Shown here: positions 376 to 53,981 of the stretch, one piece after another
How positions within the stretch are numbered: the first letter of the stretch is position 1
Layout: the number at the start of each line of letters is the position of its first letter
Origin: Rhodobacter sp.
GTDB taxonomy: Bacteria; Pseudomonadota; Alphaproteobacteria; Rhodobacterales; Rhodobacteraceae
DNA length: 64,000 nt
Direction of reading: 5' to 3'
NCBI GenBank assembly: GCA_031425795.1
Contig: JANPJZ010000228.1
Location: 18-64,017 of the forward strand
Translations under genes and position numbers: made by a program
Notes under the pieces: model-generated
Seen by the model: only the letters and a program-made list of their open reading frames with translations
The model's database searches: none
Told to the model about the DNA's origin: nothing

Positions 376-402
376 TTGACAGCCCGAAGGACACTCCATG
401 CT
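376..402 (+). promoter_or_regulatory. Promoter TTGACA-N15-CATGCT
   Basis: Matches the 15-bp-spacer promoter class seen 12 times in the window. Confidence 0.65.
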
Positions 403-529
403 CACCCCTGTCGCGCCCAACGGCGTGATGTTGCTGACCGGCTACCATTCAATACCTTGTACCACTAACCACGTCGTACTCTGCTTCACCGCCGCGTCTT
501 CTAGAAGCAGCGCTCCTCACGGATCGCTC

Positions 530-1861
530 ATGACCACTCTCCTCGGTTCCCTTATCGCTGCCCAGACCTCGGGCCCCGATCTCACCGCGTCCTATTACTT
601 CTTGGACGACGCCAATACCCCCATCCAGGCCGACGGCGCCACGATTGTGGCCAAGATCGATGCCGGATATGCCAAGCAGATCGTGAAGGCTGGCGACCAG
701 GCCTGGAAGGCCCCCGGCGAATACGGTTTCATTAAGACCGTCGTTGCCGCCGTCATCCCGCCCACCGCCCCTGCTGCTCCCGCCGCGCCTGCCGCCCCTC
801 CGGCTGCTCCGGTCGTCCCGACCGCGCCTGCCCTCCCGGCGGCTCCTGCGGCCACCAGCACCCCTCCGTTCGCCGTCGGCGCGCCCCGGGCCGACGCCAA
901 GAACCCGGGATTCCGGGAACTGGCTCCCATGATCACCAGCACCGACGAGGCCCGTAGCCTCATGGCCTCCTTCATGGCTCCGGCCGTGGCCGGCCCGGGC
1001 ACCTCGCTGCGCGAAGCCATGGACAACGACGGTGGGCAGATGTCCCACAGCCTGCCGTTCTGCAACCTGAAGAAGGGCAACTGGACCGACACCGGCACCG
1101 CCGACAAGCCGGCTCCTGGCGCCCAGTATCTGCCCGCCGGCACCCGGCCCTACAGCACGATCCTCCTGGGCTACCGCTACGCGGCCACCGGTTGGAAGGG
1201 CGATGCCAGCAACGATGGCTCCAAGGCCAGCGCCCCGCTGTATCGCTTCGTCCTGCCGACCCTCGAAGGTGACAGCGGCATCCTGCCCCTGGTCTCCGCC
1301 GTGACCAAGATCGCCCGGAAGATCCAGTACACCGGCCGCCAGGATCGGGCCAAGTTCGACGCCCTCGGCCGCATGACCCTGGAAACCCAGGTCCTGATCT
1401 GGGTCCCGAACCTGCCCCTGGGCCTGCTGTGCGTTTCCGGCTGGGAGGCCGCGAACCTGACCAGCAAGTCGGTCGACGATGCCGTGCGGGCTGGGCAGCG
1501 CATGCAGCCCTTCTCCGTCACCGTCGGCGAGCAGCAGGAAGTCAATGACAACAAGGTGAAGATGCGCGAGAAGTACCTCGCCGAGGTGTCGGCCGCCAAG
1601 GCCGCCAACCGTGCCTGCGCGCTGAAGGAAGTCACCGAGGCCGAATGCAGCTGGACCACCAAGTTCGGCAAGTTCACCCTCGACACCGGCGCGGTTGGCA
1701 CCGCCACCCGGGCCCAGTTCCAGGACTGGATCCAGAACGAGGCCAACCTCGTCAGCCTGGCCAACACCGTGAAGAACTTCAACACTGGCCGGGATTACAA
1801 CGGCCTGTCGGTTGAGGAAATTGGCGCCCTGGTGGCGAAGTACGCTCCGCTGGTCGACTGA
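530..1861 (+). CDS. Hypothetical protein with Pro/Ala-rich linker (replication-module gene; SSB-like role is speculative)
   Basis: Long ORF with strong GC3 bias; ATG 530 preferred over 398 because the upstream segment has non-coding composition; followed by a terminator. Confidence 0.75.
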   Translation: MTTLLGSLIAAQTSGPDLTASYYFLDDANTPIQADGATIVAKIDAGYAKQIVKAGDQAWKAPGEYGFIKTVVAAVIPPTAPAAPAAPAAPPAAPVVPTAPALPAAPAATSTPPFAVGAPRADAKNPGFRELAPMITSTDEARSLMASFMAPAVAGPGTSLREAMDNDGGQMSHSLPFCNLKKGNWTDTGTADKPAPGAQYLPAGTRPYSTILLGYRYAATGWKGDASNDGSKASAPLYRFVLPTLEGDSGILPLVSAVTKIARKIQYTGRQDRAKFDALGRMTLETQVLIWVPNLPLGLLCVSGWEAANLTSKSVDDAVRAGQRMQPFSVTVGEQQEVNDNKVKMREKYLAEVSAAKAANRACALKEVTEAECSWTTKFGKFTLDTGAVGTATRAQFQDWIQNEANLVSLANTVKNFNTGRDYNGLSVEEIGALVAKYAPLVD

Positions 1862-1880
1862 TTCGTCGGACCAGTTCGCT

Positions 1881-1910
1881 GCCCCCGGGACACCCGTCCC
1901 GGGGGCTTTT
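1881..1910 (+). terminator. Rho-independent terminator
   Basis: gcccccggga-cacccg-tcccgggggc followed by tttt, just after the stop at 1861. Confidence 0.85.
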
Positions 1911-1926
1911 CACACCCGGACCTGCG

Positions 1927-2268
1927 ATGCCGAAATATACCATCCACACCACCGATACCAAAGTCATCTCGGTAACCCGGGCCCTCGAGATCGTGCGGGC
2001 CAAGTACCCCATCATCCCGGGCCACGCCAAGCTACAGGGTACCTTCATCAAGGAGTCTCTCCCGGCAGAGCCTGTGCTGGTCTCCTTGACCGCTATTTGG
2101 GCTGACGCTAGTGGGGCAGAGCACCGCGTCGAGTTCACGCTGGCCGAAGCCGCCAAACTTTTCCAGCTCGATGGCTTTCCGCTCACCGCCACCACGCGCA
2201 TCGGCACCGGGCAGTGGGCTACTGTTTACACGGATGCCCAGGATGTACCCCTCGAGATCCCGAAATGA
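1927..2268 (+). CDS. Hypothetical protein
   Basis: 113-aa ORF; ATGA overlap with the next gene. Confidence 0.75.
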   Translation: MPKYTIHTTDTKVISVTRALEIVRAKYPIIPGHAKLQGTFIKESLPAEPVLVSLTAIWADASGAEHRVEFTLAEAAKLFQLDGFPLTATTRIGTGQWATVYTDAQDVPLEIPK

Positions 2269-3419
2269 CAGACATCAACCTCCGTCACGTTTCGCCGTCT
2301 GGCACCGGTGATTATGCCGGCTGCCCCGCGAAGCTGCTGTACGATTCCGAGGTGACTGAGAAGGCTGAATCCGAGTGGCCTGGCCGTGCCGAGTTCGGCA
2401 CGATCAGCCACTGGCACACCTTCAAACTGCTCGGCAGCGGCCACCTGGTGCCGAAGCCTGACGATGCCACCTACGCTGCCGCCATGTCGATGAAGTCCCT
2501 GCCGCAGACACGGGCAGCCCTTGATGAACACTCTGAGCGCTGCGCCGGGCAGGCCGTCGCCGCGATCAACATGGTGTCCCCACTTCCGCCGGGCGTCATG
2601 TGGCTGGTTGAGCAGTTGACCAGCGATCCACAGCTGTTGCCCAATCGCGTTGGCCGTCACGGCGAGCGCGGCTATGGCGGCAGCATCGACCTTGTTTCCA
2701 GCGACAATGAGTGGCTGTGGGACTTGAAGTTTACGAACCCGGACTACATGCCGGCCAAAGGCTCGTTGCTCAGCACGAAGTACCTCTGGCAGTTGGCCTC
2801 CTACACTAAGCTCCGCAAGGTGAAGAAGTCTGGCCTGGTCTATGTCGGCCGCGATGGGAAGAAAAAGCCCGTCGTTACCGTCATCGACTGGACGTCCCCC
2901 GCGGGCCGTCAGCTGCAGGACCAGGTGACGCGCTTCGTGACCTTCACGGGCTACGCGAACTTCGCGTCGCTGGCCTGGGAAGTCCGAGGCGATCAGTGCA
3001 CCTTCTGCCAACACAAGAAGTCCATCGCGGGCAAGGCCCCTCGCTGCGCCAGCCAGGGCCTTGGCATGATGGATGAAGCTGCCGCGTTCGTGCCCGTCCG
3101 CATGGCTGTTGGCGGTGGCGACGAGCTGGCCGCACTGCTTAGCCGCGTCCCCGCCACTCCGGCGGGCCGGCCTGCCAGTGCCATCCCTGCCGCGATTGGT
3201 GGCCTGACTGGTGCTGCAGTCCCGCCGCCGGCCTTTCTGCCACCACCCCCACCACCGCCACCGCCGCTGGCACCCCCAGCTCCGGCCCGGGCTCTGCCTC
3301 CGCCGCCTCCGGCTCCGCCAGCACCACTGGCCCCACCAGCACCGCCTGTTCCGGCCGCACCGCTGGCACCTCCTGCGCCGCCGGTCACCAAGCGCCCCGT
3401 TGTGGAAGAGCTGTTCTGA
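2265..3419 (+). CDS. Cas4-like / PD-(D/E)XK exonuclease with Pro-rich C-terminal tail
   Basis: SPS..CP N-terminus, G(T)xxH, GSID-x8-DLK, QLASY, C-x2-C..C Fe-S-type cysteines; poly-Pro tail. Confidence 0.8.
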   Translation: MTDINLRHVSPSGTGDYAGCPAKLLYDSEVTEKAESEWPGRAEFGTISHWHTFKLLGSGHLVPKPDDATYAAAMSMKSLPQTRAALDEHSERCAGQAVAAINMVSPLPPGVMWLVEQLTSDPQLLPNRVGRHGERGYGGSIDLVSSDNEWLWDLKFTNPDYMPAKGSLLSTKYLWQLASYTKLRKVKKSGLVYVGRDGKKKPVVTVIDWTSPAGRQLQDQVTRFVTFTGYANFASLAWEVRGDQCTFCQHKKSIAGKAPRCASQGLGMMDEAAAFVPVRMAVGGGDELAALLSRVPATPAGRPASAIPAAIGGLTGAAVPPPAFLPPPPPPPPPLAPPAPARALPPPPPAPPAPLAPPAPPVPAAPLAPPAPPVTKRPVVEELF

Positions 3420-3446
3420 TTGACACCAGAACCCTCTGAATACTGT
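3420..3446 (+). promoter_or_regulatory. Promoter TTGACA-N15-TACTGT
   Basis: Intergenic, 10 nt before ATG 3457. Confidence 0.65.
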
Positions 3447-3456
3447 GCGCTCCGTA

Positions 3457-3921
3457 ATGCCTAAACTTGCCGCGTTTGACGTAGATCTCCACCGAGTGCA
3501 CGGCTTCTGCCGCGAAGTCGGTCGCCTCTGCTACAACGCGCCAGCTTGGCCCTACGACGTGATCGCCACCTACGACCGGATTCTGGTCGAGGTGGCGAGC
3601 CCCGTCGCAACCGGAGCGTCTTCTGCGGAGGACTATAACCGACGGAAGTGGGCCATCGGCAACAGCATCATGGTCGGCCGGCTCTTCGAGTGGGCGACGC
3701 ACCATTACGACCCCGCCAAGATCCTCGTCAGTTCTGCAGATCAGTGGACCCTGAAGCACCCGGAGAAACTCCGGGAGCAGGTCGCCGGCGTTTACGGCCA
3801 GGACAACCACGACATCCGGGCCTGCCGCTGCATGCTGTTCTACTTCCAAACTAACCCCGAAAAATGGCAGCCATTGCTGGCCTATTACGACGGGCTCTCC
3901 ACCAAAAAGAAAACGAAATGA
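3457..3921 (+). CDS. Hypothetical protein
   Basis: ORF downstream of the promoter; ATGA coupling to the next gene. Confidence 0.7.
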   Translation: MPKLAAFDVDLHRVHGFCREVGRLCYNAPAWPYDVIATYDRILVEVASPVATGASSAEDYNRRKWAIGNSIMVGRLFEWATHHYDPAKILVSSADQWTLKHPEKLREQVAGVYGQDNHDIRACRCMLFYFQTNPEKWQPLLAYYDGLSTKKKTK

Positions 3922-4220
3922 ACGCCGATCTTCTCCCGATCATCCGCGCCCTCGCGCACCTATCCCGGTCGATCCTCGACAACCACGAGGACACCGAACG
4001 GCAGCAGGACCAGCTGCTGCAGGACGTCCTGGCCCTCCCGCCCAGCGTGCTGGAACCCTTGGCCGCCGCCAGCATTCGCCGCGCGGTGCTGTCCCGGGTG
4101 CCCCAGCGGTTGCTGACCGAGGTCATGAACCTGCTGTTCGTGCCCATCGCGGTGGCGGAACCCGAGGTGGTGCCGACCGACGATACCCTTCTGGTCCCCG
4201 CGCCCGAGGTGGCCCCGTGA
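3918..4220 (+). CDS. Hypothetical protein
   Basis: ATGA and GTGA overlaps on both sides. Confidence 0.7.
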   Translation: MNADLLPIIRALAHLSRSILDNHEDTERQQDQLLQDVLALPPSVLEPLAAASIRRAVLSRVPQRLLTEVMNLLFVPIAVAEPEVVPTDDTLLVPAPEVAP

Positions 4221-4849
4221 AAATCCAAGTCCTTCGCCCCTCCGCGACGCCGGAGCTGAACCAAGCCCGGCAGTGCATCGTCCTTCGGGCCGTGCGCGTC
4301 AATGAAGCCGTCAGCGCTGCTGACGTGGTGAACCCCACCATCTATCCGAATGCCAACGGCATGGACCTGGTGCTTCAGCCTGGCAGCATCTACCGCGCCT
4401 TCACCGGCGTGGCGCTGCCTGGTCAGACCCTGCGGGAGCTGCAGATCGAGGCGTCCTCCAAGGCCTTCCTCGAGGCTGGCCTGCGGGTCGAGCGGTTCGA
4501 CTTCGATGCCTCCTCGGAGCTGCGGGTCTACTTCAGCCTGCTGAAGCCCATGCGGTTCTCCCGGGACGCCCAGCTGTTCGAGCTGCGCAGCCTGGCCCTC
4601 GGCGTCGAGGCCCCAGCCGACATCACCGCTGGGGCCACCCAGCTCGGCGAGACCAACGCCATCCCGGCCCTCCAGGAAACCCGGCACGTCAAGACCATGG
4701 AGCCGCCGGCCCCGGTGCAGCAGGCTGCGCGCCCCACCGTGGACGCGAATGCCTGGCTGAACTCCCCGGATGCCCGTCCGGGGCGCGTGACGGCTGACAC
4801 CCCCGCCGCGGCACCCGCTGCCGCCAGCCCCGTCATCCTGGACCTGTAA
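4217..4849 (+). CDS. Degenerate dUTPase-fold-like protein
   Basis: DLVLQPGSIYRAFTGVAL and EASSKAFLEAGL resemble dUTPase motifs 1-2, but the catalytic motifs (RSG, GxIDxDYRG) are absent. Confidence 0.4.
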   Translation: MKIQVLRPSATPELNQARQCIVLRAVRVNEAVSAADVVNPTIYPNANGMDLVLQPGSIYRAFTGVALPGQTLRELQIEASSKAFLEAGLRVERFDFDASSELRVYFSLLKPMRFSRDAQLFELRSLALGVEAPADITAGATQLGETNAIPALQETRHVKTMEPPAPVQQAARPTVDANAWLNSPDARPGRVTADTPAAAPAAASPVILDL

Positions 4850-4853
4850 TCCC

Positions 4854-5336: not shown

Positions 5337-5353
5337 CGGTCACCATTAACGTA

Positions 5354-5381: not shown

Positions 5382-5400
5382 GTTTACCTCGAGCGATTGG

Positions 5401-5787: not shown

Positions 5788-5789
5788 GA

Positions 5790-9811: not shown

Positions 9812-9838
9812 ATCCTACAACGCCCGGGCCCGCCGCAA
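9812..9838 (-). promoter_or_regulatory. Promoter TTGCGG-N15-TAGGAT for the sheath/tube operon
   Basis: Member of the 15-bp-spacer class. Confidence 0.7.
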
Positions 9839-9844
9839 TGGCGG

Positions 9845-13628: not shown

Positions 13629-13655
13629 AGTCTGGTTGAGGGCTGGCCCGGGCAA
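13629..13655 (-). promoter_or_regulatory. Promoter TTGCCC-N15-CAGACT
   Basis: 10 nt upstream of the helicase ATG. Confidence 0.6.
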
Positions 13656-16133: not shown

Positions 16134-16160
16134 AGCCTACCAAAGCGAAACGGCCGGCAA
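16134..16160 (-). promoter_or_regulatory. Promoter TTGCCG-N15-TAGGCT, leaderless (7 nt to ATG); -35 lies inside a hairpin at about 16144-16177
   Basis: Member of the 15-bp-spacer class. Confidence 0.7.
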
Positions 16161-18299: not shown

Positions 18300-18378
18300 G
18301 GTTGGGCGGAGTGTTATGGGTTTGTTATGCCGCGCAAGACCAGACCCCTGCGCGGGGCGCAGGGGTCTGTGCGGGTGG

Positions 18379-19380: not shown

Positions 19381-19408
19381 AGATTAGCGATTGTGGGTCT
19401 CCACGCAA
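19381..19408 (-). promoter_or_regulatory. Promoter TTGCGT-N16-TAATCT, leaderless (6 nt to ATG)
   Basis: Directly behind the capsid-gene terminator. Confidence 0.6.
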
Positions 19409-19443: not shown

Positions 19444-19471
19444 CGTCCTTCACCAATAAGGACTTATACCG

Positions 19472-20951: not shown

Positions 20952-21431
20952 TTAGCGACCGGGGCGCGTGCGAAGGAACGACGTCAGAACGTCGAGCTTC
21001 GGGTCAGTGGGACGGCTGGCGGTTGCGGCAAGCTCTCCAACTTCCGGAGCGGTGGCTAGCTCGTCGAGTGCAGAGAGTTTTACGGTACCGTCGGCGATCG
21101 AGCGTTGAGCAAAGGTGAGGATGTCACCTACGTCAATCACTCCGTCCTGCGCGAGCTTCACAGAGTTGACGAGAGCAGCGGCGAGCTTGACGTTCTGAGA
21201 ACGAGAGTCACGCAACTGATCGACGACTCCGAGGAGTTGGTCGAGGGCCTCAGCGGCCTGGGCTAGCTTCTGTGTTCCGTCGACTCCAGTGCCATTCATG
21301 GTTGCAGTCGAGTTTCCAGCAGTTTTAGCGGTGCTGATGGTGGAAGATACGAGACTGTCGCGAGCCCGCAAGCCCTGGGCTTCTGCGGCCTTCAGGGTTG
21401 CTGGCAAAGGGGCCACGCGGAGCAGTGACAT
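20952..21431 (-). CDS. Hypothetical head protein, helical, K-x-A rich
   Basis: KTAG, KLAQ, KLAA; atypically AT-rich third positions. Confidence 0.65.
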   Translation of the reverse strand: MSLLRVAPLPATLKAAEAQGLRARDSLVSSTISTAKTAGNSTATMNGTGVDGTQKLAQAAEALDQLLGVVDQLRDSRSQNVKLAAALVNSVKLAQDGVIDVGDILTFAQRSIADGTVKLSALDELATAPEVGELAATASRPTDPKLDVLTSFLRTRPGR

Positions 21432-22284: not shown

Positions 22285-22311
22285 ATGGTAGCCCCGACAA
22301 AAACAACGCAA
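22285..22311 (-). promoter_or_regulatory. Promoter TTGCGT-N15-TACCAT
   Basis: -35 is embedded in the arm of the upstream terminator. Confidence 0.7.
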
Positions 22312-29430: not shown

Positions 29431-29457
29431 AGCATAGGATTGCTCCGGGCAGCGCAA
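29431..29457 (-). promoter_or_regulatory. Promoter TTGCGC-N15-TATGCT, near-leaderless (8 nt to ATG)
   Basis: Member of the 15-bp-spacer class. Confidence 0.7.
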
Positions 29458-32403: not shown

Positions 32404-32433
32404 GACAGGTTTATGTCCAAACCTGTCGATGTG

Positions 32434-33345: not shown

Positions 33346-33372
33346 AGTGTGTCGTTAGTTGCAGCAACGCAA
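33346..33372 (-). promoter_or_regulatory. Promoter TTGCGT-N15-CACACT, leaderless (6 nt to ATG)
   Basis: Member of the 15-bp-spacer class. Confidence 0.7.
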
Positions 33373-35199: not shown

Positions 35200-35226
35200 A
35201 TCGTAGACCGATCGTTCTCGCTGCAA
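35200..35226 (-). promoter_or_regulatory. Promoter TTGCAG-N15-TACGAT, leaderless (7 nt to ATG)
   Basis: Member of the 15-bp-spacer class. Confidence 0.7.
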
Positions 35227-36702: not shown

Positions 36703-36705
36703 GGG

Positions 36706-36900
36706 TCAGGCCTTCGGCGGGGTGAACGTCAGGATCGTAGCGTGGCCCACGCGAACCCTGGACAAGTGCCAGCCGGGGTAGCGGGCCACCAGCTCGGCCT
36801 CTTGGGCGGGGTTGGCCACCCGGTGTCGCACGGAGGCAACCCGGGTAGAGCCCGGCGGTGGCGCGGCAGCACGAAACTTGGGGCAGGCAGAACAGGCCAT
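36706..36900 (-). CDS. Small protein with N-terminal CxxC
   Basis: MACSACPK; own leaderless promoter; stop 3 nt before the spike ATG. Confidence 0.55.
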   Translation of the reverse strand: MACSACPKFRAAAPPPGSTRVASVRHRVANPAQEAELVARYPGWHLSRVRVGHATILTFTPPKA

Positions 36901-36906
36901 GGAAGA

Positions 36907-36933
36907 AGGGTAAATCAGAGGGTTAAATTGGAA
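36907..36933 (-). promoter_or_regulatory. Promoter TTCCAA-N15-TACCCT, leaderless (6 nt to ATG)
   Basis: Variant of the class in the AT-rich divergent intergenic region. Confidence 0.55.
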
Positions 36934-37046
36934 GGCGTTTTATGGGATAAGTAATATAGTGGGTAGCAATACCCGCCGCGCTGCATGTCTGCAGCGATGG
37001 CTTACTAACCCGAGCGCCGCACAGCCGGCCAGAAAGGACGGGCGTC

Positions 37047-37334
37047 ATGAAGACGGCCACCTACCTCCGCGACCTTGGCAATGGTCGTCACCTCTACCGG
37101 CTGAGCGAGCCGGTGCCGATGGCTGACGGATTCAGCTGCGCCTTCGTGGCGTCCTACACGTCCCTCCTCGACGGGCAGCTCGAGACCGTTCTTGTCGGGG
37201 CTGACGCGGACGGGATGTCGGACTTCAATGCCCACGTGGGCCTCGAGTTCGAGGCCTTTGGGCAACCGCCGGCGGTCAGCCGGATCCTGGCCCAGCACGG
37301 CTACGACCTCGTTTACCCCGCGAAAGCGGGGTGA
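37047..37334 (+). CDS. Hypothetical protein
   Basis: SD-like AAGGA upstream; first gene of the + strand island. Confidence 0.7.
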   Translation: MKTATYLRDLGNGRHLYRLSEPVPMADGFSCAFVASYTSLLDGQLETVLVGADADGMSDFNAHVGLEFEAFGQPPAVSRILAQHGYDLVYPAKAG

Positions 37335-37337
37335 GCG

Positions 37338-38027
37338 ATGGGCGCCCCGCATCACATTCGCGACCAGGCAGATGATGCTCGCCACCTCATCCGGCTGAAA
37401 TCCCGCCACTGGGGCCACCACCGGACATCTGCAGCGTTCACAGATGTGGACTGGGACGTCGGCCGCGACAGCGAGGTTGCCCGCGCAAGGCGGGGCCTCG
37501 GGGACCTCCTGGACACCGCGGTTCGTTTGTTCCGGTCAGGAGACTACAACTTCAGCATACGCTTCCGCAATGCGATTAAACGACAATGGTCCGTCATTAC
37601 GGAGCTCGGCGCTGCAGCTGCAGAACTCGAAGACCTCAACGTCTTTCTCGAGAAGTTTAGCCTGCGCTTGACTGGTAACGGGTCGATCATCCCTGACCCG
37701 GCGGCAGTGGCAAAGTGGCAGGCCCTCGCAGCCCAGATCAAGCATCTCAGCGTCGAGCTTGAGATGGCAGCGCAGACCGGCCGGGACAAAGCCGTGCGGG
37801 CTCGCGACCGCCGGCTGAAGGCCATCGCGAGTGCCAAGGCCGGAATAGGCTGCGTCCGCCTCGGGGCAGACGGCCAGTACTACGAAGTCGAGCTGGCAAC
37901 GCTGTTGAAAGAAGCGGAGCACGATGAGGTGCACCAACTCGAGGCACGGGTTGCCAGGTTGAAGAGCGACCTGGCAGCCGCGAAGCAACGAGACCAGCAG
38001 GCCCGACTTGGCCTGCTCAAACTGTGA
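37338..38027 (+). CDS. Hypothetical coiled-coil protein
   Basis: 229-aa ORF in operon. Confidence 0.65.
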   Translation: MGAPHHIRDQADDARHLIRLKSRHWGHHRTSAAFTDVDWDVGRDSEVARARRGLGDLLDTAVRLFRSGDYNFSIRFRNAIKRQWSVITELGAAAAELEDLNVFLEKFSLRLTGNGSIIPDPAAVAKWQALAAQIKHLSVELEMAAQTGRDKAVRARDRRLKAIASAKAGIGCVRLGADGQYYEVELATLLKEAEHDEVHQLEARVARLKSDLAAAKQRDQQARLGLLKL

Positions 38028-38043
38028 GAAAGGAGACCCAGCG

Positions 38044-46049: not shown

Positions 46050-46360
46050 TGCACTACGGGCCAATCAAAATCAGCGCTACTGATGACCGTGTCGGGTCGC
46101 AGGGTGGGACCCTCAACGCGCAGCAGATCCCGTGCACCAAGGAGCAGGTGTTCGATGACGAATACCGATGCGACTTCACGGACACCCAGGCGGAGGAAAA
46201 GCTCCGCGCGGAGAGGCTCGAGCGGGAATACATCAAGCGCCGGATCCGCCGTAAACTGGCTGGGCTGGCGGCCCGTGAGGCCAACGACAAGCTGTGCCAG
46301 ACCCGCGAGTACCGGGAAGCCGCGTCGGCCCATGCGCTCGGCCACAGAGGTGCAAAATGA
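46049..46360 (+). CDS. Hypothetical basic protein
   Basis: TAATG coupling; contains CQTREYRE. Confidence 0.6.
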   Translation: MHYGPIKISATDDRVGSQGGTLNAQQIPCTKEQVFDDEYRCDFTDTQAEEKLRAERLEREYIKRRIRRKLAGLAAREANDKLCQTREYREAASAHALGHRGAK

Positions 46361-46569
46361 CGTTCTATGGTCAAAATCCCCGCCGCGACTACCGCCGCGT
46401 AAGCTCGCAGGACGGAACGCCGAACCTCGGGGTACCCGCCCGACTGCTTGGCCTGCGGAGGAAGTACCTGTTCTTGCTCAGGCTGCACAAGCGGATGAAG
46501 CACGACCGGAAATGCCAAACCCGCGAGTACCGAGAGAAGATGTCCCATGAAGCGAGGATGAAGAAATGA
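46357..46569 (+). CDS. Hypothetical basic protein
   Basis: ATGA coupling; second CQTREYRE copy. Confidence 0.6.
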   Translation: MTFYGQNPRRDYRRVSSQDGTPNLGVPARLLGLRRKYLFLLRLHKRMKHDRKCQTREYREKMSHEARMKK

Positions 46570-46832
46570 CACCGCGCCAACGAAAACAGAAACGCCGGCT
46601 GTTCATCAGGAAGTTGAACGCAGCGCTGCATCGCAACCTAGATGCCTACCTGACGCCACAGATCCGGAAAGCGGCAAAGGCCCAACACTGGAAACACTTG
46701 CACGCCAAGTGCCATTGGTTCCGGGCAGCTGATCACGCGGCTGTGGTGGCAGAGGCTGCTGCGTCTGTGGACAACATCGTGGTTATGCCGCTCCAATACT
46801 ATCGCCGGACAGCAGCGCCAAAAGGACTGTAG
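46566..46832 (+). CDS. Hypothetical basic protein
   Basis: ATGA coupling; followed by a terminator. Confidence 0.6.
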   Translation: MTPRQRKQKRRLFIRKLNAALHRNLDAYLTPQIRKAAKAQHWKHLHAKCHWFRAADHAAVVAEAAASVDNIVVMPLQYYRRTAAPKGL

Positions 46833-46837
46833 CACGC

Positions 46838-46872
46838 AGCCCGGCGGGAGCCGGGCTGCTTGCTTTTCTTTT
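46838..46872 (+). terminator. Terminator closing the + strand island
   Basis: gcagcccggc-ggga-gccgggctgc followed by ttgcttttctttt. Confidence 0.85.
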
Positions 46873-47587
46873 ACTTCGAGCGATTCAGCGGTGCGAACGG
46901 ACGGGGCGTAGTGGAAGGGGCCTTGATGGCCTCGAGCGTCGTGGCCGCCGCTGGGCCAAACACCTCGCGCAATGTCTGCCGTGCAAAAGCAGATAGGGCC
47001 GGCGAAACCATCCTGTTGTTCCGGGTATGCACGGTGGCGACAAGTGGACTTTCGGTGTCCATGCCAACGCGGAGCTTGACGCCCGCTTGGTTGAACTCGT
47101 GGTTCGTGCTCTGGTGATCGGTGTTCACCTGTAGGGCTCCGACCTCCACGGCCAGGGAGGCTGGTAGCACCCGTTCAAGGCGCCCCTTCGACTTCCAGGC
47201 CAGGTACGCGAGGCCCGCATGCGCAGCAGCATCCGGAAAGCAGATAAACTGCTCGCCTTCTGTGCCGCGTACGTGCTTGTTCTCGTGCTGCTGGAACGAC
47301 GCAGAAGCTGCCCGGTCTGCCAGAATATCCTTACCTGGTTTGTGGTCGTCCTTGTGCGCCAGGTCGCGGAACACTGCGGTCTTGCGCTGTTCCAGAGCCT
47401 CCGTCGCGAAGAAGGCGGTCTTCCGGAACTTCGGCTCAGCCTTGGCCAGGTCGCTGTAGTAGTGCGGGAACTCCCGCAGGTGATCCAAGGCTGTGCGCTT
47501 GGCGGCGGGCAGCGGCATGTTGTGCTCCGCATGCTCGTCTTTGGTGCCGGCGGCGACCTCTGCGGGCGGGATGTGCTCAGTGCTCAT
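46871..47587 (-). CDS. Hypothetical protein coupled to the RNAP gene
   Basis: ATG 47587 overlaps the RNAP 3' end. Confidence 0.65.
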   Translation of the reverse strand: MSTEHIPPAEVAAGTKDEHAEHNMPLPAAKRTALDHLREFPHYYSDLAKAEPKFRKTAFFATEALEQRKTAVFRDLAHKDDHKPGKDILADRAASASFQQHENKHVRGTEGEQFICFPDAAAHAGLAYLAWKSKGRLERVLPASLAVEVGALQVNTDHQSTNHEFNQAGVKLRVGMDTESPLVATVHTRNNRMVSPALSAFARQTLREVFGPAAATTLEAIKAPSTTPRPFAPLNRSK

Positions 47588-50500
47588 GCGTCGCTCCGCG
47601 ATTGAACGCAGTATCTCCCTCGGCGATCGGGCGGAAGAGCGCACCGTATGCCAGGCCCGGCACCGGGCTCCCGCTGCCGGTGAGGTCGCTCTTGCCGCCC
47701 ATGGCCGGCACCTGCTGCAGGGTGTCGGTCAGGCGCTGGAAGTTTAGGCGCTCCATCAGGTCGTTGGACCGGCGCAGTGGCAGGCCGTAGAGGCCGGGAA
47801 CGGTGGGCACCGCCTGGACACGCGGGTTCTTGGCCTTGCGGGCCAGGTAGTCGTTCTCGTGCAGCAGGTCGCCAGCGGCCAGGTCGTGCTCGCCACCGTC
47901 GTCGGTGATTTCGACCCAGCGCAGGGTGGCTGAGGCGATCACTTCGAGCACAGGGCGCCGAACCACGGCGCCCGAGGTAGCGTAGGCCTTCCGCGTCTCG
48001 TCGACGACGTACTGCTGGGCCGCCAGGTTGCCCTTCTTCGCCGCGATCTCCTGGGGCCGGTAGCTGCCGTCGGAGAGGGCGTCGCCGATCTTCACGTGGT
48101 CGCCAACCTTGACCTTCAGGGCCCGGCCGGTGCCAATGTAGTGGGCCGGCTCGGTCTCGCCGAGCTTGTCAGGGGTGACCGTGACGTAGTAGCCGCCCTG
48201 CGGGGCCGGCCGGATCTCCGTCACCTTGCCGTCGTGGTCAGCCAGCGTGCCCTGGTCCTTCAGGTCGTGCGGTGCCGTCAGCAGCTCGTTAAGCCGGGCG
48301 AAGCCCGCACTCATGCTGTCGCCGGACCCGACGGTGCCGCCCGAGTGGAACTGCTTCATGATGGCCTGGGTGCTGCGTTCAGAGAACGTCTGGCCATAGT
48401 CCAGGCCGATGTTGGCCCCGACCTCGTGCAGCTTGCCATCTGGCCGCGTGCCAGCGCACATCGAGCACGGCGGGGACATCGACTTGCAGGTCATGGCGCT
48501 GCGGACCTTGAAGTGCATCACCTTGCGGTCACGCAGCGTGGCCAGCATCTCGGGGGTCACCCGGTCGTTGCGCTTGAACGACGTGGTGGGGATCCCGTCG
48601 ACCAGGAACCGGTCGAGGAGGTCTGCATCGTGCCCTTTGACGCCTAGCATGTCCGTCTGGACCTCGATGCCCTCGTGAGTGCCGCAGTCGGCCTCCGTCA
48701 CGCGGATCGGGCCCATGTTGCCGGCGACGCTCTTGGCCAGGTAGCCAGGGAGCGCGGTGGCCAGCGAACGGGCCACGATACCGGCCCGGGCACCAGGGGT
48801 GGTGAGAACGTAATCGCTCGGGGCCATGCCCGAGCCGTAGCCGCTCTTGATTACCTGGGGGATGACCTTGCCAGCGACGTCGGCCACCAGCACAGGGCTA
48901 GCCATCATCTGCTGGTAGCTGTCGAAGCCGAGCTTGGAGCTGGGCTTCGAGGACAAGAAGATCGAGCCGCCCAGGCCGATGCCGTGGAGGTGGTCCGCGA
49001 TTGCGGCGCGCAGGCCCGGCTTCACGTCAGCCTCGAAGTTCTTGAGCGCAACGTCGCGCTTGCCCTTCAGGGTGGACTGCGCCGCGATGTCCCGCTCGAG
49101 CTGGTCGAGCAGGCGGTTGATCTTGGTCCGGTCCATGACCAGCTCATCAACGGTGGCCGTGATGCCGCCGGACCGTGCGCTGGCGGTGAAGCCAGCCTGG
49201 GCAATCCGCTTGCTCAGCATGTTGTAGGAGGCCGGATCCTTCTCAGCGATCTGCGTCAGCAGTGCCTCCAGCTTCTTGCCGTCGATGGGGCTCCCGGCCA
49301 GGCCAGCGTAATAGCGGGGCGGGAGCATCTCCTCGAGCATCAGCCATCCGATCTGCTGTGGCTTGCCGGCCACCGAGACGACGCTGTTCATCTTGAGGTT
49401 CTGCTTCGGGTCGTGGAAGGCCTTGAGCGCGTCGCCTACATCATCGAACTTCTTCCCGCTCGGCTGCCCGGGGCGGGTGAGCATGAACAGGCCCGTGATC
49501 ACGTCCTTATCCACCCCATAGGCGAGCGTGCGATCCTTGTCGTAGAACAGGTTGTTCGACGGGAGCAGGTTGTAGGCCTCCTTCTTCGCAGCATCAGTGA
49601 GCGGCACCGTGATGCTGGTGGTGTCGCCGTCGTAGTCCCCGTTGATGGGGCCCAGGAGCAGCGGGCTCGTCTTGATTTCCTTACCGGGGACCAGGCGCAC
49701 CTTGGCCGAGCTGACGCTCCACCGGTGCAGCGACGGCGCGCGGTTGATCATCACCAGGCGGTCCTGGATCTCGGCGTCCAGGGCGTTCTTGGCGCTCTGG
49801 GTCCGCTTCTGCACCTCGACCATCGCGTCGGCTGGCTTCCAGCCGCTCTGCACCAGGCGGCGGATGATGGCGGGCTCGTAGATCTTCCAGGCCATCAAGA
49901 TCGGGATACCGATCTCGTCGGGGCCCAGGGTGGCATCGGGCTCGATCGTCGACCGGCCCGTGTAATCGTTACGGCGGCGGGTGAGGTTGCGCTGGAACAG
50001 GCCCTCCTTGTTGGACACGCCCTTGATGATGTCGGCAAAGCCGCGCAGCTCTTCAGCGTCCCGGCGCTTGGTCATTGCTGGCGCTAGGCCGATGATGCCG
50101 GCGTGGGCGTCGTAGAGCGACAGGCGGGCCTGGGCCAAATCTGTAGCAGGAAGGCTCTTGTCCTTCTCAGCGCGCTCCACCAGCCCCTTGGTGAGCAGGA
50201 GATCGCGGTAAAGCAAGTTCGCATCTGCGACACGCAGGCCGCCATCCTTCATCTCGATGATCGGCCGGTACTTTGGTGGCACCACGGGCACCACAGAGGT
50301 CAGGTAGGCGTCGGCGGGGGACAGCTCCATGCTCTTCAGGCCACGCAGGTAGCGGGTGACCCGGTTCAGCTTGTTGCGGTCGGACCCGACGGCGGTCTTG
50401 GCCTTCTCCTTGGCCTCAGCCAGGCGCTTGTCGATGTCGAACGACAGCAGGTGCTTGAAGGCGGCCTCGCCGGTCAGCGTCTTGCCGGTGGGCTCTTCCA

Positions 50501-53500
50501 GGAGCTCGCCGGTCTTTGGATCCAGGTGCCGGGTCTCGCCGATCAGTCCGTAGAACTGCGCGGTCTTCAGGCCCGTGATGTCGCGGATGGCCTTCTCGAA
50601 CAGCGGGTTCGGCATCGAGCGGCCCAGCTCGATGTGGCTGTAGTGCTCGCCCTTCAGGCCACCCGTGACCTCCTCGTCGAACAGGCCACCCTTCTCGGCA
50701 GCCAGGTCTTTGGCCCGGATCAGCGACGCCCGGGTCACGGCGCCGTTCGACATTTCGCGGACCTTCTTGTCCGTCATGGGCAGGTAGTGCAGCGAAGTTC
50801 CATCTTTATGCGTGTCGATGCCCATTCCGTGCAGATAACTGCGGAACTTCTCGAACGCGAAGGGCACCTTCGGGGGTGGCGGAAGCTCGCCGGCCTGGTA
50901 GGCGTGCCAGAACTCGTCGTTCTTGGTGCCCCGGATGCCGGCGGACTCGGACAGGATGGCATGGGCGTTGTGGCCCAGCAGCGCGTAGGTCGTCAGGTGG
51001 TCGAAGCTCTGGCCGCCCTTGCCCTTGCCGCGCGTCGGCTCCTCGTCCATCGTGTAGCCGTCCCGGGTCCGGGCGCTGAACTTCTTGCGCACGGCGTGGT
51101 CCAGCTTGACGACGTAGTTGAAGCCGGTGGCGACTGGCTCCTCGAGGTCCTTGCCGGTGACAGGATCGTGGAGGATCTCGGCATGCTTCAGGCCGGCCTT
51201 CTTGAGCGCAGCAGCGATCTCCCGGGCATGATCGCGGCCGTCAAAGTTAGCGTGGTTGTACTCGACGCCGCCATCCTTCACCAGCTTGCCGGCGGCCTGC
51301 TCGATGGTCTGGGAGGGGTTGATGCGGCCGGCCACGCCGTGGGGGTTGAAGATTACCTGGATCGAGCGGCCCTTTTCGTCCGTCGGCATCTCGTGGTCCG
51401 GGATGATGGCGGAGATGGTGCCCTTGGCAGCGGAGCTCATGGAGAGCTTGTCACCGACCCGGCAGGGCTCTTCGGTCTCGAGGTGGACCTCGACGCGGTC
51501 CTTGTTTTTGAGAACGCGCACGACCTTGCCCTGGAACTCTTCGTCCCAGGCGAGGGCTGCGTTCACGTAGGGGCGCTCGAGGATCTTGTGGATCTCGCCG
51601 AGATTCTTCGAGCTCTTGTCCGTGGGGTCGTAGACGCGCTTGCGGACGGCCAGCACCAGGAGGTCGCCGGGGCTGACGATGGAGCCCGCCTTGATCAGGC
51701 CGTTCTCGTCGAGCTTCTCCAGGCTACCGGGCTGGAACACCGTCGGGAACTGGGCGATGAACAGCTTGCGGTTGACCTCGAGGCCAGCCATATCCAGGTA
51801 GGACCGGTGGACATGCTGGGACGCCAGGTGCTTCGCAGCGCTCTCGCTGATCGCGATGGCGTCCTCGAAGTTCGATGCGTTCTTCCAGGGCATGTAGGCA
51901 GAGAGCAGGTTGGTGCCCAGGGCCAGCTTGCCGTTCTTGGAGTAGTTCGAGTCCGCGAGCAGGTCGCCCTTCTTGACCATGTCGCCAACCTTGACGACGG
52001 CCTCGTGGTGGATGGCGACCTTGGCCTGCATCGGGTATTTGTCGAACAGCTCGTGCTTGACGTCCCCGACCCAGATGGCGTTCGGCTCGACCTTGGTGAC
52101 CTTGCCGGACACGGTGGCCCGGACGACGAACGACCGCGCGATGGACTCGAGCACGTCGCCGCCGGCGATGTCCTTCAGGCCCACCAGGGGGAGCTCGCGG
52201 TGGGTGAGCGGCAGCGCCTGGGTCAGGTGCTTACCGGCCATCATGCCGCGGTTGGGATGGGTGTGGGCGAAGAACAGCGCGGCGTTCGAGGTGTGGTCGA
52301 ACATCGACGCGCCAGAGGGGATGGCGTAGGTGACCGACTTGGCCGGGACGCTGACGACTTCGCCGTCCTTGATGGCACGGACGAGGCCAACCCGGGACTG
52401 GTTCCGGTCCTTCGGATCGACGCCTGCAGCGCGGTCGATAGCATCGTCTTTGGCGGCCTGGGCTTTGGTATACGAGATCGTGTCGCCGGTCTTCAGATCG
52501 AAGTATTCCGGGTACATGACGACTTCGTCGCTGGCCTGCTCGATCGAGAGGTACTTCGGCGCCGACAGGTTCACCTTCCCGTTGATGACGGGATAGTAGG
52601 GAGCCTTGAGGGTTTTGTCCTCGCGAATGACGTTGGCTGCAGCATGTGTTGTAACACCGATCTCGCTCCCTTCCGGGGTGTGGACGAGGTCAATAATATT
52701 AGAGGCTGTTGGGCGGAACAGACGGGCGCCCATCGTGATCGCGTGGCTGCTCTGGATGCCGCCTTCACCGGTCAGCGTCATCTTGCTCTGCTCGGACAGG
52801 ATCGCGAGCGGGTTGGCGGCTTCTGCAGTCGAGGCCAGGCCACCGGGCATGCCGCCACCGCCGCCGAAATAGCCGATCGTAGCACCGTTCAGCCAGGTGC
52901 CATTTCCGAAAATTCCGGAAATGCTGGAATCCTTGTCAGCCAGCCGCCGCAGCGTCTTGTTCTTCGTCATGCGCCAGTACTTGGCGATGCGCTCGGCCAT
53001 CAGGTCCTCGAGGCCGTGGGCGCTCTTGAACTCGGGGGCGTCACGGTCATCGGGTTCGACATCGCCGCGCTGGACAGCAAAGATCTGGCCGGCGGCCTTG
53101 AGCAGCAGCTCAGGGCCCACCTTGGAGATGGCCTTGCCGAGGGTCTTGCGGGTGACGAACGGGTCCACATCGCGGCCGTCCATCCACTGCTTGATGAATG
53201 CGACCTTGTCGTTGTAGCCCATCGCCGTGCTGACGGGCCGCTCGATGATGCCACCCTTCAGCAGGTCCTGGTCCAGCTTCGTCTTGGACACGGCCTCATA
53301 GAACTTTTCGACGTCCTTCACCATGGCGGCGTCGGTCATCTTGTTCATCTCGACGACCGCCCGGGCGTGTTCCGTGCTGCCGAGGGCGGTGGCCATCTCG
53401 CCTTCGCTGACGCCCAGGGCACGCATGACGGCGTACCAGGCGACATTGGTGGTGCCCTTGCCGAGCTTCAGCAGGCCCTTGCTGGGCTCCATCCAGATGG

Positions 53501-53948
53501 TGAGGCCACCACCCTTGAGGGGGATGAACGCCTCGTACTGGCCGTTGGCCATCTCGCGGGTGTAGCAGCCGGGCTTCAGGCGGGTCTGGGCGAACGGGGT
53601 GTACCAGTCGGCGCCCTTGACCATGGCGGTGCCCAGGCCGGTGTAGAGCGGCAGGTCGCCCAGGCGCACCTTCTGCTTCGTCTCCACGACCTTGCCGTCG
53701 CGCACCAACTGCACGTCGGCGTAGATCTTGGCACCCAGGGTCTTACCGGCCTGGCGGGCCTCCTGGTGGGCGATGCGGCCGATCGGATTGAAGTCGCCGG
53801 CGTCCACGACGACGTTGGTGGCCCGGGCCTCCGTCCGGCCGTCGGTGGTCTGCAATGGAAACAGCCCAGCCACAGCCGCTGCGACCGTCGTCTTCAGCTT
53901 CTGGTTGGCAGCATCGTAGGATGGCGTCGGCGCGATAGGCTCAGGCAT
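47577..53948 (-). CDS. rpoBC: Fused beta-beta' multisubunit DNA-dependent RNA polymerase
   Basis: beta: NFEDAI, GDKLS..KG, FNPHGV.GRIN, KLDH, GGQ; beta': NRAPSLH, NGDYDGD (49623-49643), GAR.G bridge helix, TQAIMKQFH trigger loop, Zn cysteines. Confidence 0.95.
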   Translation of the reverse strand: MPEPIAPTPSYDAANQKLKTTVAAAVAGLFPLQTTDGRTEARATNVVVDAGDFNPIGRIAHQEARQAGKTLGAKIYADVQLVRDGKVVETKQKVRLGDLPLYTGLGTAMVKGADWYTPFAQTRLKPGCYTREMANGQYEAFIPLKGGGLTIWMEPSKGLLKLGKGTTNVAWYAVMRALGVSEGEMATALGSTEHARAVVEMNKMTDAAMVKDVEKFYEAVSKTKLDQDLLKGGIIERPVSTAMGYNDKVAFIKQWMDGRDVDPFVTRKTLGKAISKVGPELLLKAAGQIFAVQRGDVEPDDRDAPEFKSAHGLEDLMAERIAKYWRMTKNKTLRRLADKDSSISGIFGNGTWLNGATIGYFGGGGGMPGGLASTAEAANPLAILSEQSKMTLTGEGGIQSSHAITMGARLFRPTASNIIDLVHTPEGSEIGVTTHAAANVIREDKTLKAPYYPVINGKVNLSAPKYLSIEQASDEVVMYPEYFDLKTGDTISYTKAQAAKDDAIDRAAGVDPKDRNQSRVGLVRAIKDGEVVSVPAKSVTYAIPSGASMFDHTSNAALFFAHTHPNRGMMAGKHLTQALPLTHRELPLVGLKDIAGGDVLESIARSFVVRATVSGKVTKVEPNAIWVGDVKHELFDKYPMQAKVAIHHEAVVKVGDMVKKGDLLADSNYSKNGKLALGTNLLSAYMPWKNASNFEDAIAISESAAKHLASQHVHRSYLDMAGLEVNRKLFIAQFPTVFQPGSLEKLDENGLIKAGSIVSPGDLLVLAVRKRVYDPTDKSSKNLGEIHKILERPYVNAALAWDEEFQGKVVRVLKNKDRVEVHLETEEPCRVGDKLSMSSAAKGTISAIIPDHEMPTDEKGRSIQVIFNPHGVAGRINPSQTIEQAAGKLVKDGGVEYNHANFDGRDHAREIAAALKKAGLKHAEILHDPVTGKDLEEPVATGFNYVVKLDHAVRKKFSARTRDGYTMDEEPTRGKGKGGQSFDHLTTYALLGHNAHAILSESAGIRGTKNDEFWHAYQAGELPPPPKVPFAFEKFRSYLHGMGIDTHKDGTSLHYLPMTDKKVREMSNGAVTRASLIRAKDLAAEKGGLFDEEVTGGLKGEHYSHIELGRSMPNPLFEKAIRDITGLKTAQFYGLIGETRHLDPKTGELLEEPTGKTLTGEAAFKHLLSFDIDKRLAEAKEKAKTAVGSDRNKLNRVTRYLRGLKSMELSPADAYLTSVVPVVPPKYRPIIEMKDGGLRVADANLLYRDLLLTKGLVERAEKDKSLPATDLAQARLSLYDAHAGIIGLAPAMTKRRDAEELRGFADIIKGVSNKEGLFQRNLTRRRNDYTGRSTIEPDATLGPDEIGIPILMAWKIYEPAIIRRLVQSGWKPADAMVEVQKRTQSAKNALDAEIQDRLVMINRAPSLHRWSVSSAKVRLVPGKEIKTSPLLLGPINGDYDGDTTSITVPLTDAAKKEAYNLLPSNNLFYDKDRTLAYGVDKDVITGLFMLTRPGQPSGKKFDDVGDALKAFHDPKQNLKMNSVVSVAGKPQQIGWLMLEEMLPPRYYAGLAGSPIDGKKLEALLTQIAEKDPASYNMLSKRIAQAGFTASARSGGITATVDELVMDRTKINRLLDQLERDIAAQSTLKGKRDVALKNFEADVKPGLRAAIADHLHGIGLGGSIFLSSKPSSKLGFDSYQQMMASPVLVADVAGKVIPQVIKSGYGSGMAPSDYVLTTPGARAGIVARSLATALPGYLAKSVAGNMGPIRVTEADCGTHEGIEVQTDMLGVKGHDADLLDRFLVDGIPTTSFKRNDRVTPEMLATLRDRKVMHFKVRSAMTCKSMSPPCSMCAGTRPDGKLHEVGANIGLDYGQTFSERSTQAIMKQFHSGGTVGSGDSMSAGFARLNELLTAPHDLKDQGTLADHDGKVTEIRPAPQGGYYVTVTPDKLGETEPAHYIGTGRALKVKVGDHVKIGDALSDGSYRPQEIAAKKGNLAAQQYVVDETRKAYATSGAVVRRPVLEVIASATLRWVEITDDGGEHDLAAGDLLHENDYLARKAKNPRVQAVPTVPGLYGLPLRRSNDLMERLNFQRLTDTLQQVPAMGGKSDLTGSGSPVPGLAYGALFRPIAEGDTAFNRGATHEH

Positions 53949-53954
53949 GGCAGG

Positions 53955-53981
53955 AGTATGGCCCCCGCCTTGCCCCTGCAA
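53955..53981 (-). promoter_or_regulatory. Promoter TTGCAG-N15-CATACT, leaderless (6 nt to ATG 53948)
   Basis: Member of the 15-bp-spacer class; supports ATG 53948 over TTG 53981. Confidence 0.7.

Follow-up and report, generated by a model that had tools for sequence, protein, structure and literature searches.

The 64-kb window analyzed here (the whole stretch of DNA under study, part of the 110,034-bp contig JANPJZ010000228.1) comes from a freshwater sediment metagenome and represents an uncultured phage of 65% GC that encodes a bacterial-type RNA polymerase (RNAP) and a sigma factor of its own; the GC content of the window is 62-70%. Our subject is a class of intergenic sites in this window that resemble two-part bacterial promoters, in which a -35 hexamer beginning with TTG and a -10 hexamer of the form YANNNT are held 15 nucleotides apart (N15), and the question of which polymerase reads them. 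Three metagenome runs, all of DNA, contain or accompany the sequence, and a look for RNA runs that contain it found none. By codon-bias gene calling, which we carried out ourselves, the genes fall into four blocks: 380-4849 on the plus strand, 5401-36900 on the minus strand, 37047-46360 on the plus strand (small genes and two tRNAs) and 46871-63999 on the minus strand. These calls leave 33 non-coding segments, which together amount to 6,614 nt, or ca. 10% of the window. The tRNA genes include one for tRNA-Pro. Products of the minus-strand blocks include a 1057-aa protein with a tail-sheath-like C terminus (phrog_279), a fusion of an SNF2 helicase with a HAD hydrolase, and a 979-aa protein whose counterpart in a related phage locus, L004, matches GpA_ATPase, a terminase-type family. 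When ca. 30 window proteins were compared with Pfam and PHROG for assignment to early or late classes, nearly all were without a match; since most of the minus-strand genes have no family match, the label "late" that the preliminary description had attached to them could not be established.

Two genes of the last block encode the candidate readers of the sites. The first (47577-53948, minus strand) specifies a multisubunit-type RNAP in which beta and beta' are fused, with Rpb2_6, Rpb2_3, Rpb1_1, Rpb1_2 and Rpb1_5 all matching one 2123-aa protein. The second (56128-56832, minus strand), which lies two genes upstream of the first, specifies a 234-aa sigma-70-family factor with domains sigma2, sigma3 and sigma4. 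RNAPs that are 52-63% identical to that of the window are encoded by ca. 30 metagenomic contigs, several of them ca. 200 kb long, and one further RNAP is 95% identical; among the distant cultured relatives, at 29-30% RNAP identity, are Vibrio phages D69, D148 and D181 and Salmonella phage Arash. No near-identical DNA was found among sequenced phages. Because RNAP homologues occur in the related contigs and in cultured phages, we assign the phage, on its predicted gene content, to the RNAP-encoding Caudovirales (mReC) of PMC7481178: homologues of RNAP beta and beta' are present, along with the sheath-like C terminus, the terminase-type neighbor in L004 and the ca. 200-kb related contigs. The hints as to the host are weak and conflict with each other, one relative having been binned in a metagenome-assembled genome (MAG) of the Phycisphaerae and one sigma homologue in a MAG of the Bryobacteraceae; a literature search on promoters and leaderless mRNAs in Planctomycetes found nothing.

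All 13 sites of the preliminary description, 12 with an N15 spacer and one, at 19381, with N16, are present where it had placed them, minus-strand sites being cited there by the low end of the motif. To compare spacer lengths, we counted TTG[CA]NN-Nk-YANNNT in the non-coding DNA, where spacers of k = 11 to 21 gave 2, 4, 1, 2, 11, 4, 2, 0, 3, 0 and 4 matches, respectively, against an expectation of 1.75 ± 1.37 per spacer from 500 dinucleotide shuffles of the same DNA. None of the 500 shuffles reached the N15 count of 11, and the largest count in the shuffles at any spacer was 8. This histogram, a check that had been proposed along with the sites, bears out the N15 enrichment. The stricter pattern TTGNNN-N15-TANNNT was observed eight times against 1.1 expected. 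The window as a whole has 13 matches to the N15 pattern, 11 of which lie in the small non-coding share, and every N15 site is oriented toward its downstream gene. The upstream hexamer of the 13 listed sites begins with TTG in 12 (TTGC in nine, TTGAC in three) and with TTCC in one, and the downstream hexamer is TAnnnT in nine and CAnnnT in four, its final T being invariant by construction because the search pattern demanded YAnnnT. In place of the 17 ± 1 bp of primary-sigma promoters, the spacer is exactly 15 bp in 12 of the 13 listed sites and 16 bp in one; when three weaker sites beyond the list are included (18311-18337, 21344-21371 and 32410-32437), it is exactly 15 in 13 of 16 and 17 in none. 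No TG-extended -10 was seen at the listed sites, no other recurring motif was seen in the gaps ahead of the minus-strand genes, and canonical N16-18 sigma-70 promoters showed no excess in the plus-strand block at 36500-47000 (3 versus 1.9 expected).

The placement of the sites relative to start codons is as distinctive as their spacing. At seven of the listed sites, all on the minus strand, an ATG follows the end of the -10 after 6-8 nt, just as previously noted. This gap is 6 nt for TTGCGT-N16-TAATCT (19381-19408; ATG 19374), for TTGCGT-N15-CACACT (33346-33372; ATG 33339), for TTCCAA-N15-TACCCT (36907-36933; ATG 36900), which has a weak -35, and for TTGCAG-N15-CATACT (53955-53981; ATG 53948), the putative promoter of the fused RNAP gene. 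It is 7 nt for TTGCCG-N15-TAGGCT (16134-16160; ATG 16126) and TTGCAG-N15-TACGAT (35200-35226; ATG 35192), and 8 nt for TTGCGC-N15-TATGCT (29431-29457; ATG 29422). An eighth case is the extra site TTGACA-N16-CATAAA (32410-32437, minus strand), which lies 6 nt from the ATG (32403) of the 979-aa gene. Somewhat longer gaps are found on the minus strand at TTGCCC-N15-CAGACT (13629-13655), where ATG 13618 of the SNF2-HAD gene is 10 nt past the -10, and at the extra site TTGCGC-N15-TAACAC (18311-18337), with 11 nt to ATG 18299. Three minus-strand sites are leadered: TTGCGG-N15-TAGGAT (9812-9838) precedes the 1057-aa gene, whose ATG (9786) is 25 nt past the -10 with AAGGAT in the leader; TTGCGT-N15-TACCAT (22285-22311) is 30 nt from ATG 22254; and the extra site TTGCGG-N16-TATCTT (21344-21371) precedes ATG 21299. 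On the plus strand, the -10 of TTGACA-N15-CATGCT (376-402) overlaps the first in-frame ATG (398), the next being at 428, and TTGACA-N15-TACTGT (3420-3446) has an ATG (3457) 10 nt past its -10, leaving a leader of ca. 3 nt. The third plus-strand site, TTGACG-N15-CACACT (42439-42465), lies just past a gene and 17 nt ahead of tRNA-Pro; it is doubtful as a promoter because both hexamers sit in the arms of a hairpin, and it may instead be a terminator or processing hairpin. The proposed division between TTGC on the minus strand and TTGAC on the plus strand is weak, as there are three plus-strand sites only, one of them this hairpin, and the minus-strand TTGACA at 32437 breaks the rule.

The same geometry is enriched among gene starts in general: a YANNNT ends 6-8 nt upstream of 10 of 80 candidate gene-start ATGs, versus ca. 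3.7 expected from the rate at all ATGs of the window. The start codons themselves are backed by homologues, since the N termini agree and orthologues share the geometry; the RNAP has the same first methionine in all 18 homologues compared, and tblastn matches of the products of a 604-aa gene and a 301-aa gene to relatives start at residue 1. As read from the sequence, the leaderless-geometry sites leave no room for a Shine-Dalgarno sequence, and it is from this geometry that we infer both the transcription start sites and leaderless translation. A related locus, L006, has TTGTTC-N16-TACCAT followed after 6 nt by an ATG (21741) that lies upstream of the database start (21939); provided that ATG 21741 shares the reading frame of the annotated gene, this gene appears to have been called ca. 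200 nt too short. Mis-annotation of leaderless starts is probably frequent in this phage group.

Strong GC-rich hairpins, often with a T-run, lie directly ahead of several of the sites or overlap them (minus-strand sites are named here by their upper coordinate). The -35 is within the loop and 3' arm of a 17-bp terminator-like hairpin at 16160 and within the 3' arm of a 15-bp terminator-like stem at 22311. At 19408, 33372 and 18337 a hairpin ends just before the -35, that at 19408 being terminator-like with a T-run and that at 18337 being strong, and at 42439 a perfect stem of 14 bp (-36 kcal/mol, z = -5.6) has the two hexamers in its arms. Because strong hairpins directly precede or overlap the sites, the genome appears to be divided into short units, each composed of a terminator, a promoter and one or more genes. 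The sites at 35226, 53981, 29457, 13655, 36933, 376 and 3420 have no hairpin or a weak one, yet keep TTG at exactly 15 nt, which argues that the -35 is not a mere by-product of terminators. Canonical intrinsic terminators, with GC stems of 9-11 bp and T-runs, were also observed behind units of the plus-strand block, at 39159-39193, 40235-40269, 42644-42676 and 46836-46869; there is one after each tRNA gene, and none precedes a TTGC-class promoter.

The architecture recurs at orthologous positions in related phages, where the promoter of the RNAP gene is kept while its spacer sequence diverges completely. The arrangement is TTGCCA-N15-CATACT, 7 nt, ATG in L003 (95% RNAP identity); TTGCTG-N15-CATACT, 6 nt, ATG in L031 (72% sigma identity); TTGCGT-N15-TAGGCT, 8 nt, ATG in L004 (61% sigma identity); and TTGCAG-N16-TACACT, 8 nt, ATG in L002 (56% sigma identity). 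In L005, L006 and L007 (46-52% sigma identity), all that remains is the -10, still 6-7 nt from the start. Orthologues of the 604-aa gene, which follows the site at 35200 in the window, have TTGC-N16-TAnnnT, 7-8 nt, ATG in L004 and L008, and a -10, 7 nt, ATG in L028, the one new locus that came out of a search of viral and metagenome collections for more orthologous promoters. Orthologues of the 301-aa gene in L004 and L006 keep the -10 at 6-7 nt before an ATG or GTG. In L031, which we used as a proxy for the head of the sigma/RNAP gene string of the window, that string is headed by TTCCAT-N15-CACGAT, 7 nt, ATG, which resembles the TTCCAA variant at 36907. When ten related loci were pooled (13.9 kb of non-coding DNA), the count peaked at N16, with 20 matches versus 7.0 ± 2.7 expected and none of 300 shuffles reaching it, and the N15 count was 12. 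The preferred spacer thus differs by clade: the window, L003 and L031 favor 15, relatives whose sigma is 51-61% identical favor 16, and 17 is seen in the most distant loci, which have few sites. A spacer of exactly 15, as originally described, therefore holds for this phage and its nearest relatives, and the peak lies at 16 in the relatives at 51-61%.

On the strength of the N15 enrichment, the uniform orientation, the YANNNT elements before ATGs, the upstream hairpins, the supported start codons and the conservation at orthologous positions, we regard the sites as a real, recurring class of promoter-like elements with a fixed 15-bp spacer. As judged from these patterns, most transcription units of the phage would start at sigma-70-like promoters of this kind.

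The phage sigma factor is recognizably a member of the sigma-70 family. Its Sigma70_r3 match is above cut-off and its region 2-3 aligns to SigA chains (E = 1e-8); the best full-length matches are FliA/WhiG and SigB/F/G profiles, which span residues 54-228, with NCBIfam scores that are all far below the family cut-offs. The predicted structure (mean pLDDT 85) matches sigma chains over its full length. The recognition helix reads SPARISAVKE and so differs from its E. coli sigma-70 counterpart, TRERIRQIEA; for this reason the phage sigma is not a copy of sigma-A, and it could read a shifted -35. The equivalent of Y430 is retained. The order of the genes for sigma, a 713-aa protein and RNAP is identical in every relative. 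The closest cultured counterpart of the window sigma is Gp10 of Arash, and in that phage Gp10 and the RNAP beta and beta' subunits are among the most abundant proteins of purified virions (PMC10585845).

Two further features of this gene neighborhood were observed. Proteins of 713, 691, 659 and ca. 1000 aa, encoded at 53985-63999 on the minus strand, occur in the same order around sigma and RNAP in L002-L009 and L031; these four or five large proteins have no match in Pfam, PHROG or NCBIfam, and they may be additional subunits of the polymerase or proteins carried inside the virion. In addition, the fused RNAPs of many relatives (including P0002, P0003, P0009, P0014-P0016, P0024, P0025, P0027, P0028, P0034 and P0035) are 2,470-2,950 aa long and contain LAGLIDADG, Hom_end or intein-splicing domains, which are absent from the window copy. 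This suggests that inteins or homing endonucleases have been inserted in the polymerases of these phages.

A second candidate promoter, which we call the ATAAG box, is shared with the cultured phages. Four perfect copies of ATAAGTAATAT lie upstream of genes on one strand of Vibrio phage D69 (L024), each preceded by GTT or TTGTT, and seven copies of GGTATAAG, all on one strand, occur in Arash, versus 1.0 expected. The window has a single perfect ATAAGTAATAT, at 36947, in its only AT-rich divergent gap and facing the plus-strand block of small genes; a back-of-the-envelope estimate for this AT-rich 11-mer gives a chance expectation of ca. 0.001. The 11-mer is included in GGGATAAGTAATATAGTGG (36941-36965, plus strand). 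The shorter ATAAGT occurs six times in the window, always in non-coding DNA, the copies other than that in the divergent gap being at 48-53, 118-123, 39708 and 43923 on the plus strand and at 19462-19470 on the minus strand. Related boxes are GGGATAAGAATTATAGTGG in L028, CTATAAGTATAAT in L004, GATAAGAATAAT in L006 and GGTATAAGGATTGTAC in L007, those of L004 and L006 sitting in the equivalent divergent gap. The ATAAG box may thus be a second promoter class that spans the phage lineage regardless of host, and its occurrence in phages of Vibrio, of Salmonella and of a high-GC host would be easier to explain if a conserved phage factor, rather than host enzymes, were responsible. Two other motifs were tried and set aside. 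The pattern G[GT]TATAAG of Arash and D69, considered as the main class of the window, has one match only, which is the chance level, and CTAAAATA, considered as a late promoter of Arash, was matched three times, in two cases right beside the complement of GGTATAAG, and was not relied on.

We propose that the N15 sites would act as two-part sigma-70-family promoters, composed of a TTGC -35 (sometimes TTGAC or TTCC), a rigid 15-bp spacer and a YAnnnT -10 (mostly TAnnCT or TAnnAT). Each would open a transcription unit, usually right after or partly inside the preceding terminator hairpin, and at seven or eight of them transcription would start on the A of the ATG or 1-2 nt earlier, to give an mRNA with neither a leader nor a Shine-Dalgarno sequence. 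The reader, which is the least certain step, would be a phage holoenzyme made up of the fused beta-beta' RNAP and the 234-aa sigma. Divergence in domain 4 of this sigma would account for a TTGC that is 2 bp nearer the -10 than in host promoters, and the holoenzyme may enter the cell with the virion, by analogy with Arash. That the phage's own holoenzyme reads the N15 class is the interpretation to which we lean, tentatively and somewhat short of calling it probable. It is favored because the rigid short spacer tracks phage relatedness, because TTGC dominates over TTGAC, because neither an excess of canonical promoters in the plus-strand block nor another recurring motif was found, and because the gene order of sigma, the 713-aa protein and RNAP is conserved; moreover, a two-part promoter is to be expected of a full sigma2-3-4 protein. 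The objection that the RNAP gene itself lies behind a promoter of the class that its product would read is weakened by the presence of Gp10 and RNAP in the virions of Arash. A fuller picture can be drawn, which we hold with more reserve than the assignment of the reader: the fused RNAP and sigma would form a self-sufficient holoenzyme, possibly delivered by the virion, with TTGC-N15-TAnnnT as its own promoter; the rigid short spacer, having drifted from 15 to 16 to 17 bp as the enzyme diverged between clades, would set phage transcription apart from that of host sigma-A; and transcription would start on the A of the start codon, leaving most messages leaderless.

Several observations weigh against a phage reader. 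About half of the leaderless sites of the relatives lack a -35 TTG, and because of this the robust family-wide feature is a -10 placed for a leaderless start, to which a short, clade-specific -35 is added that is best developed in the window phage. TAnnnT is a hallmark of primary (host) sigma factors. In E. coli sigma-70 numbering, the W433/W434 pair belongs to region 2.3, and R584, E585, R588 and Q589 of region 4.2 read TTG; the phage sigma has T and K at the former positions and P, A, S and A at the latter, and thus lacks the residues that would mark it as a primary (group 1) factor. Linker length between sigma3 and sigma4 does not co-vary with the spacer, as L004 is one residue shorter and L008 nine residues longer, both with N16. 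A sigma delivered by the virion would be expected at early promoters, yet the class precedes structural, terminase-like and RNAP genes. Finally, the ATAAG box is a candidate that rivals the TTGC class as the promoter of the conserved phage enzyme; if the factor behind that box is the conserved holoenzyme, the TTGC class would be left to either the host enzyme or a second sigma. The preliminary description had called the sigma and the fused RNAP the obvious readers. Both genes are indeed present, and "obvious" is too strong in view of the missing residues and the rival box.

The most serious competitor, which we consider plausible though doubtful, is that the host primary sigma holoenzyme reads the sites, and that the phage RNAP and sigma are virion cargo for the early ATAAG box, made late in infection from host-type promoters. 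Such an enzyme would recognize a TTG -35 and a TAnnnT -10, which are the primary-sigma consensus, and the leaderless layout would mirror that of the host's own genes, with TANNNT beside the open reading frame (ORF). The ORF-adjacent, leaderless TANNNT is a host pattern in Deinococcus-Thermus and Actinobacteria (PMC4007540, PMC12340547). A host reader also fits a class that drives the RNAP gene as well as structural genes and that, in L031, stands at the head of the sigma/RNAP string, as would be expected for components of the virion, among them the Arash counterpart of the window sigma. It further agrees with an ATAAG box that is kept across hosts and heads the block on the opposite strand, and with a phage sigma that lacks the sigma-A residues for both the -35 and the -10. 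Phages N4 and P23-45 likewise encode their own RNAP, yet host RNAP transcribes the late genes of N4 and the middle and late genes of the Thermus phage P23-45 from sigma-A-type promoters. The spacing is harder to reconcile with a host enzyme: 15 bp is the edge of the primary-sigma range, sigma-A promoters usually vary far more in their spacers, and the preferred length moves from 15 through 16 to 17 as one passes from clade to clade of the phages. The dominant -35 is TTGC and not TTGAC, and the likeness to host promoters was judged against a general primary-sigma consensus.

An unlikely third explanation is that another phage sigma reads the sites, either of the Arash gp196 type and encoded elsewhere in a ca. 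200-kb genome, or acting with the host core as a hybrid enzyme in the style of T4 and SPO1. Arash and D69 carry two sigma genes each, of which the window sigma matches the Gp10 type only; the window covers 64 kb of its contig, related contigs are ca. 200 kb long, and a rigid short spacer would suit an alternative sigma. Set against this, a second sigma did not turn up in the window or in the ca. 26 kb around the RNAP of ten relatives, and no data call for a hybrid. Finally, it is most improbable that the sites are not promoters at all and merely reflect start-codon context together with GC-rich terminator hairpins whose T-rich tails supply TTGC: such an origin would suit the -35s inside a hairpin (16160, 22311) or right after one (19408, 33372) and the hexamers in hairpin arms at 42439, whereas hairpin-poor sites keep TTG at exactly 15 nt, shuffles never match the observed count, orientation and distance to the ATG are consistent across sites, and the architecture is kept at orthologous positions despite diverged spacer sequences.

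Comparison with known systems places the N15 class near, and not within, several of them. It shares with primary sigma promoters (TTGACA-N17-TATAAT) a two-part form with TTG first, the A2 and T6 of the -10, and an implied start ca. 7 nt after the -10; it differs in its spacer, 15 bp (16 in sister clades) instead of 17 ± 1, and in a -35 whose fourth base is C instead of A. Promoters of group-3 sigmas such as sigma-28/FliA are written TAAA-N15-GCCGATAA. Like the window sigma, these factors are ca. 235-250 aa long, have sigma2-3-4 and use rigid short spacers, whereas the hexamers of the window are primary-sigma-like and unlike any group-3 consensus. The transcripts of P23-45 are reportedly often leaderless, as would be those of the window phage. 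However, the RNAPs of P23-45 and N4 are not known as sigma-dependent bacterial-type enzymes, and no 15-bp spacer rule is known for the promoters of these phages. The RNAPs of jumbo phages such as phiKZ and AR9 have promoters that are short single elements. These enzymes are multisubunit, can free the phage from host transcription, and include one set that is carried in the virion (PMC7598289, PMC7824862). They differ from the window enzyme in having split subunits and no sigma (PMC7824862), where the window has a fused RNAP, a three-domain sigma and a two-part promoter.

Leaderless promoters of Deinococcus-Thermus and Actinobacteria, in which TANNNT lies beside the ORF and the primary 5' end of the mRNA is at the start codon (PMC4007540, PMC12340547, PMC6448022), resemble the phage sites with TANNNT 6-8 nt before an ATG or GTG, a high-GC genome and no apparent Shine-Dalgarno sequence. 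A widely conserved -35 was not found in Deinococcus, and an added -35 helps at 17 bp and not at 22 bp (PMC12340547); in contrast, the phage has a -35 at 15 bp at nearly every site, in addition to its own RNAP and sigma. Arash and D69 are akin to the window in their RNAPs and, in the case of Arash, in the match of Gp10 to the window sigma, and differ from it in their upstream motifs (G[GT]TATAAG...), in genes that are led by a Shine-Dalgarno sequence, and in that beta and beta' are fused in the window. The text of the mReC paper (PMC7481178) contains neither "promoter" nor "sigma," and that of the Arash paper (PMC10585845) does not contain "promoter." In the literature searched, we found no description of a fixed 15/16-bp TTGC...TAnnnT leaderless class in a phage that encodes both RNAP and sigma. 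The suggestion that the sites are an undescribed promoter code for the phage group is thus borne out in part: the motif does recur in the group, but its elements are ordinary sigma-70-family ones and the leaderless layout is known.

The identity of the reader matters because phages with an RNAP and a canonical sigma are known from genome sequences only, and nothing in the literature searched describes what such an enzyme recognizes. The window offers a clonable set of candidates, 13-16 sites whose 15-bp spacer is fixed and whose start position is defined, and the sister clades, with their 16-bp spacer, can serve as a natural comparison. If the phage enzyme reads the sites, one catalytic protein and a sigma with its own spacer rule would make a compact system that bears on the evolution of sigma-RNAP geometry and could serve for orthogonal expression. 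If the host enzyme does, a large phage would run much of its late program on leaderless messages, in a host with an unusual spacer preference. Whichever polymerase reads the sites, gene callers will misplace the start codons of leaderless genes such as these.

Two other regions of the window contain features that stand apart from the promoters. A 409-aa protein encoded at 44225-45454 on the plus strand has a weak match to Transposase_20 (IS110 family). Its homologues include more than 800 proteins of ca. 288 aa from many metagenomes, those of Tara samples among them, which are 52-55% identical over 69% of the query. Between this gene and the preceding plus-strand gene lie 817 nt (43408-44224) without a convincing ORF, the minus strand of which contains CGGGTTTCT-like 9-mers ca. 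10 times, with spacings that are mostly multiples of ca. 36 nt; GACACACT occurs four times in the same segment. Tandem Repeats Finder reported nothing there, which implies that the repeats are degenerate. At the left end of the window, the AT-rich first 380 nt contain a 42-nt direct repeat (40-81 and 110-151; copies 83% identical and 70 nt apart) that includes CATAAGTCATTGTA and TACTCCGCGACTCT. It may have a regulatory role, act as a replication origin or mark an end of the genome.

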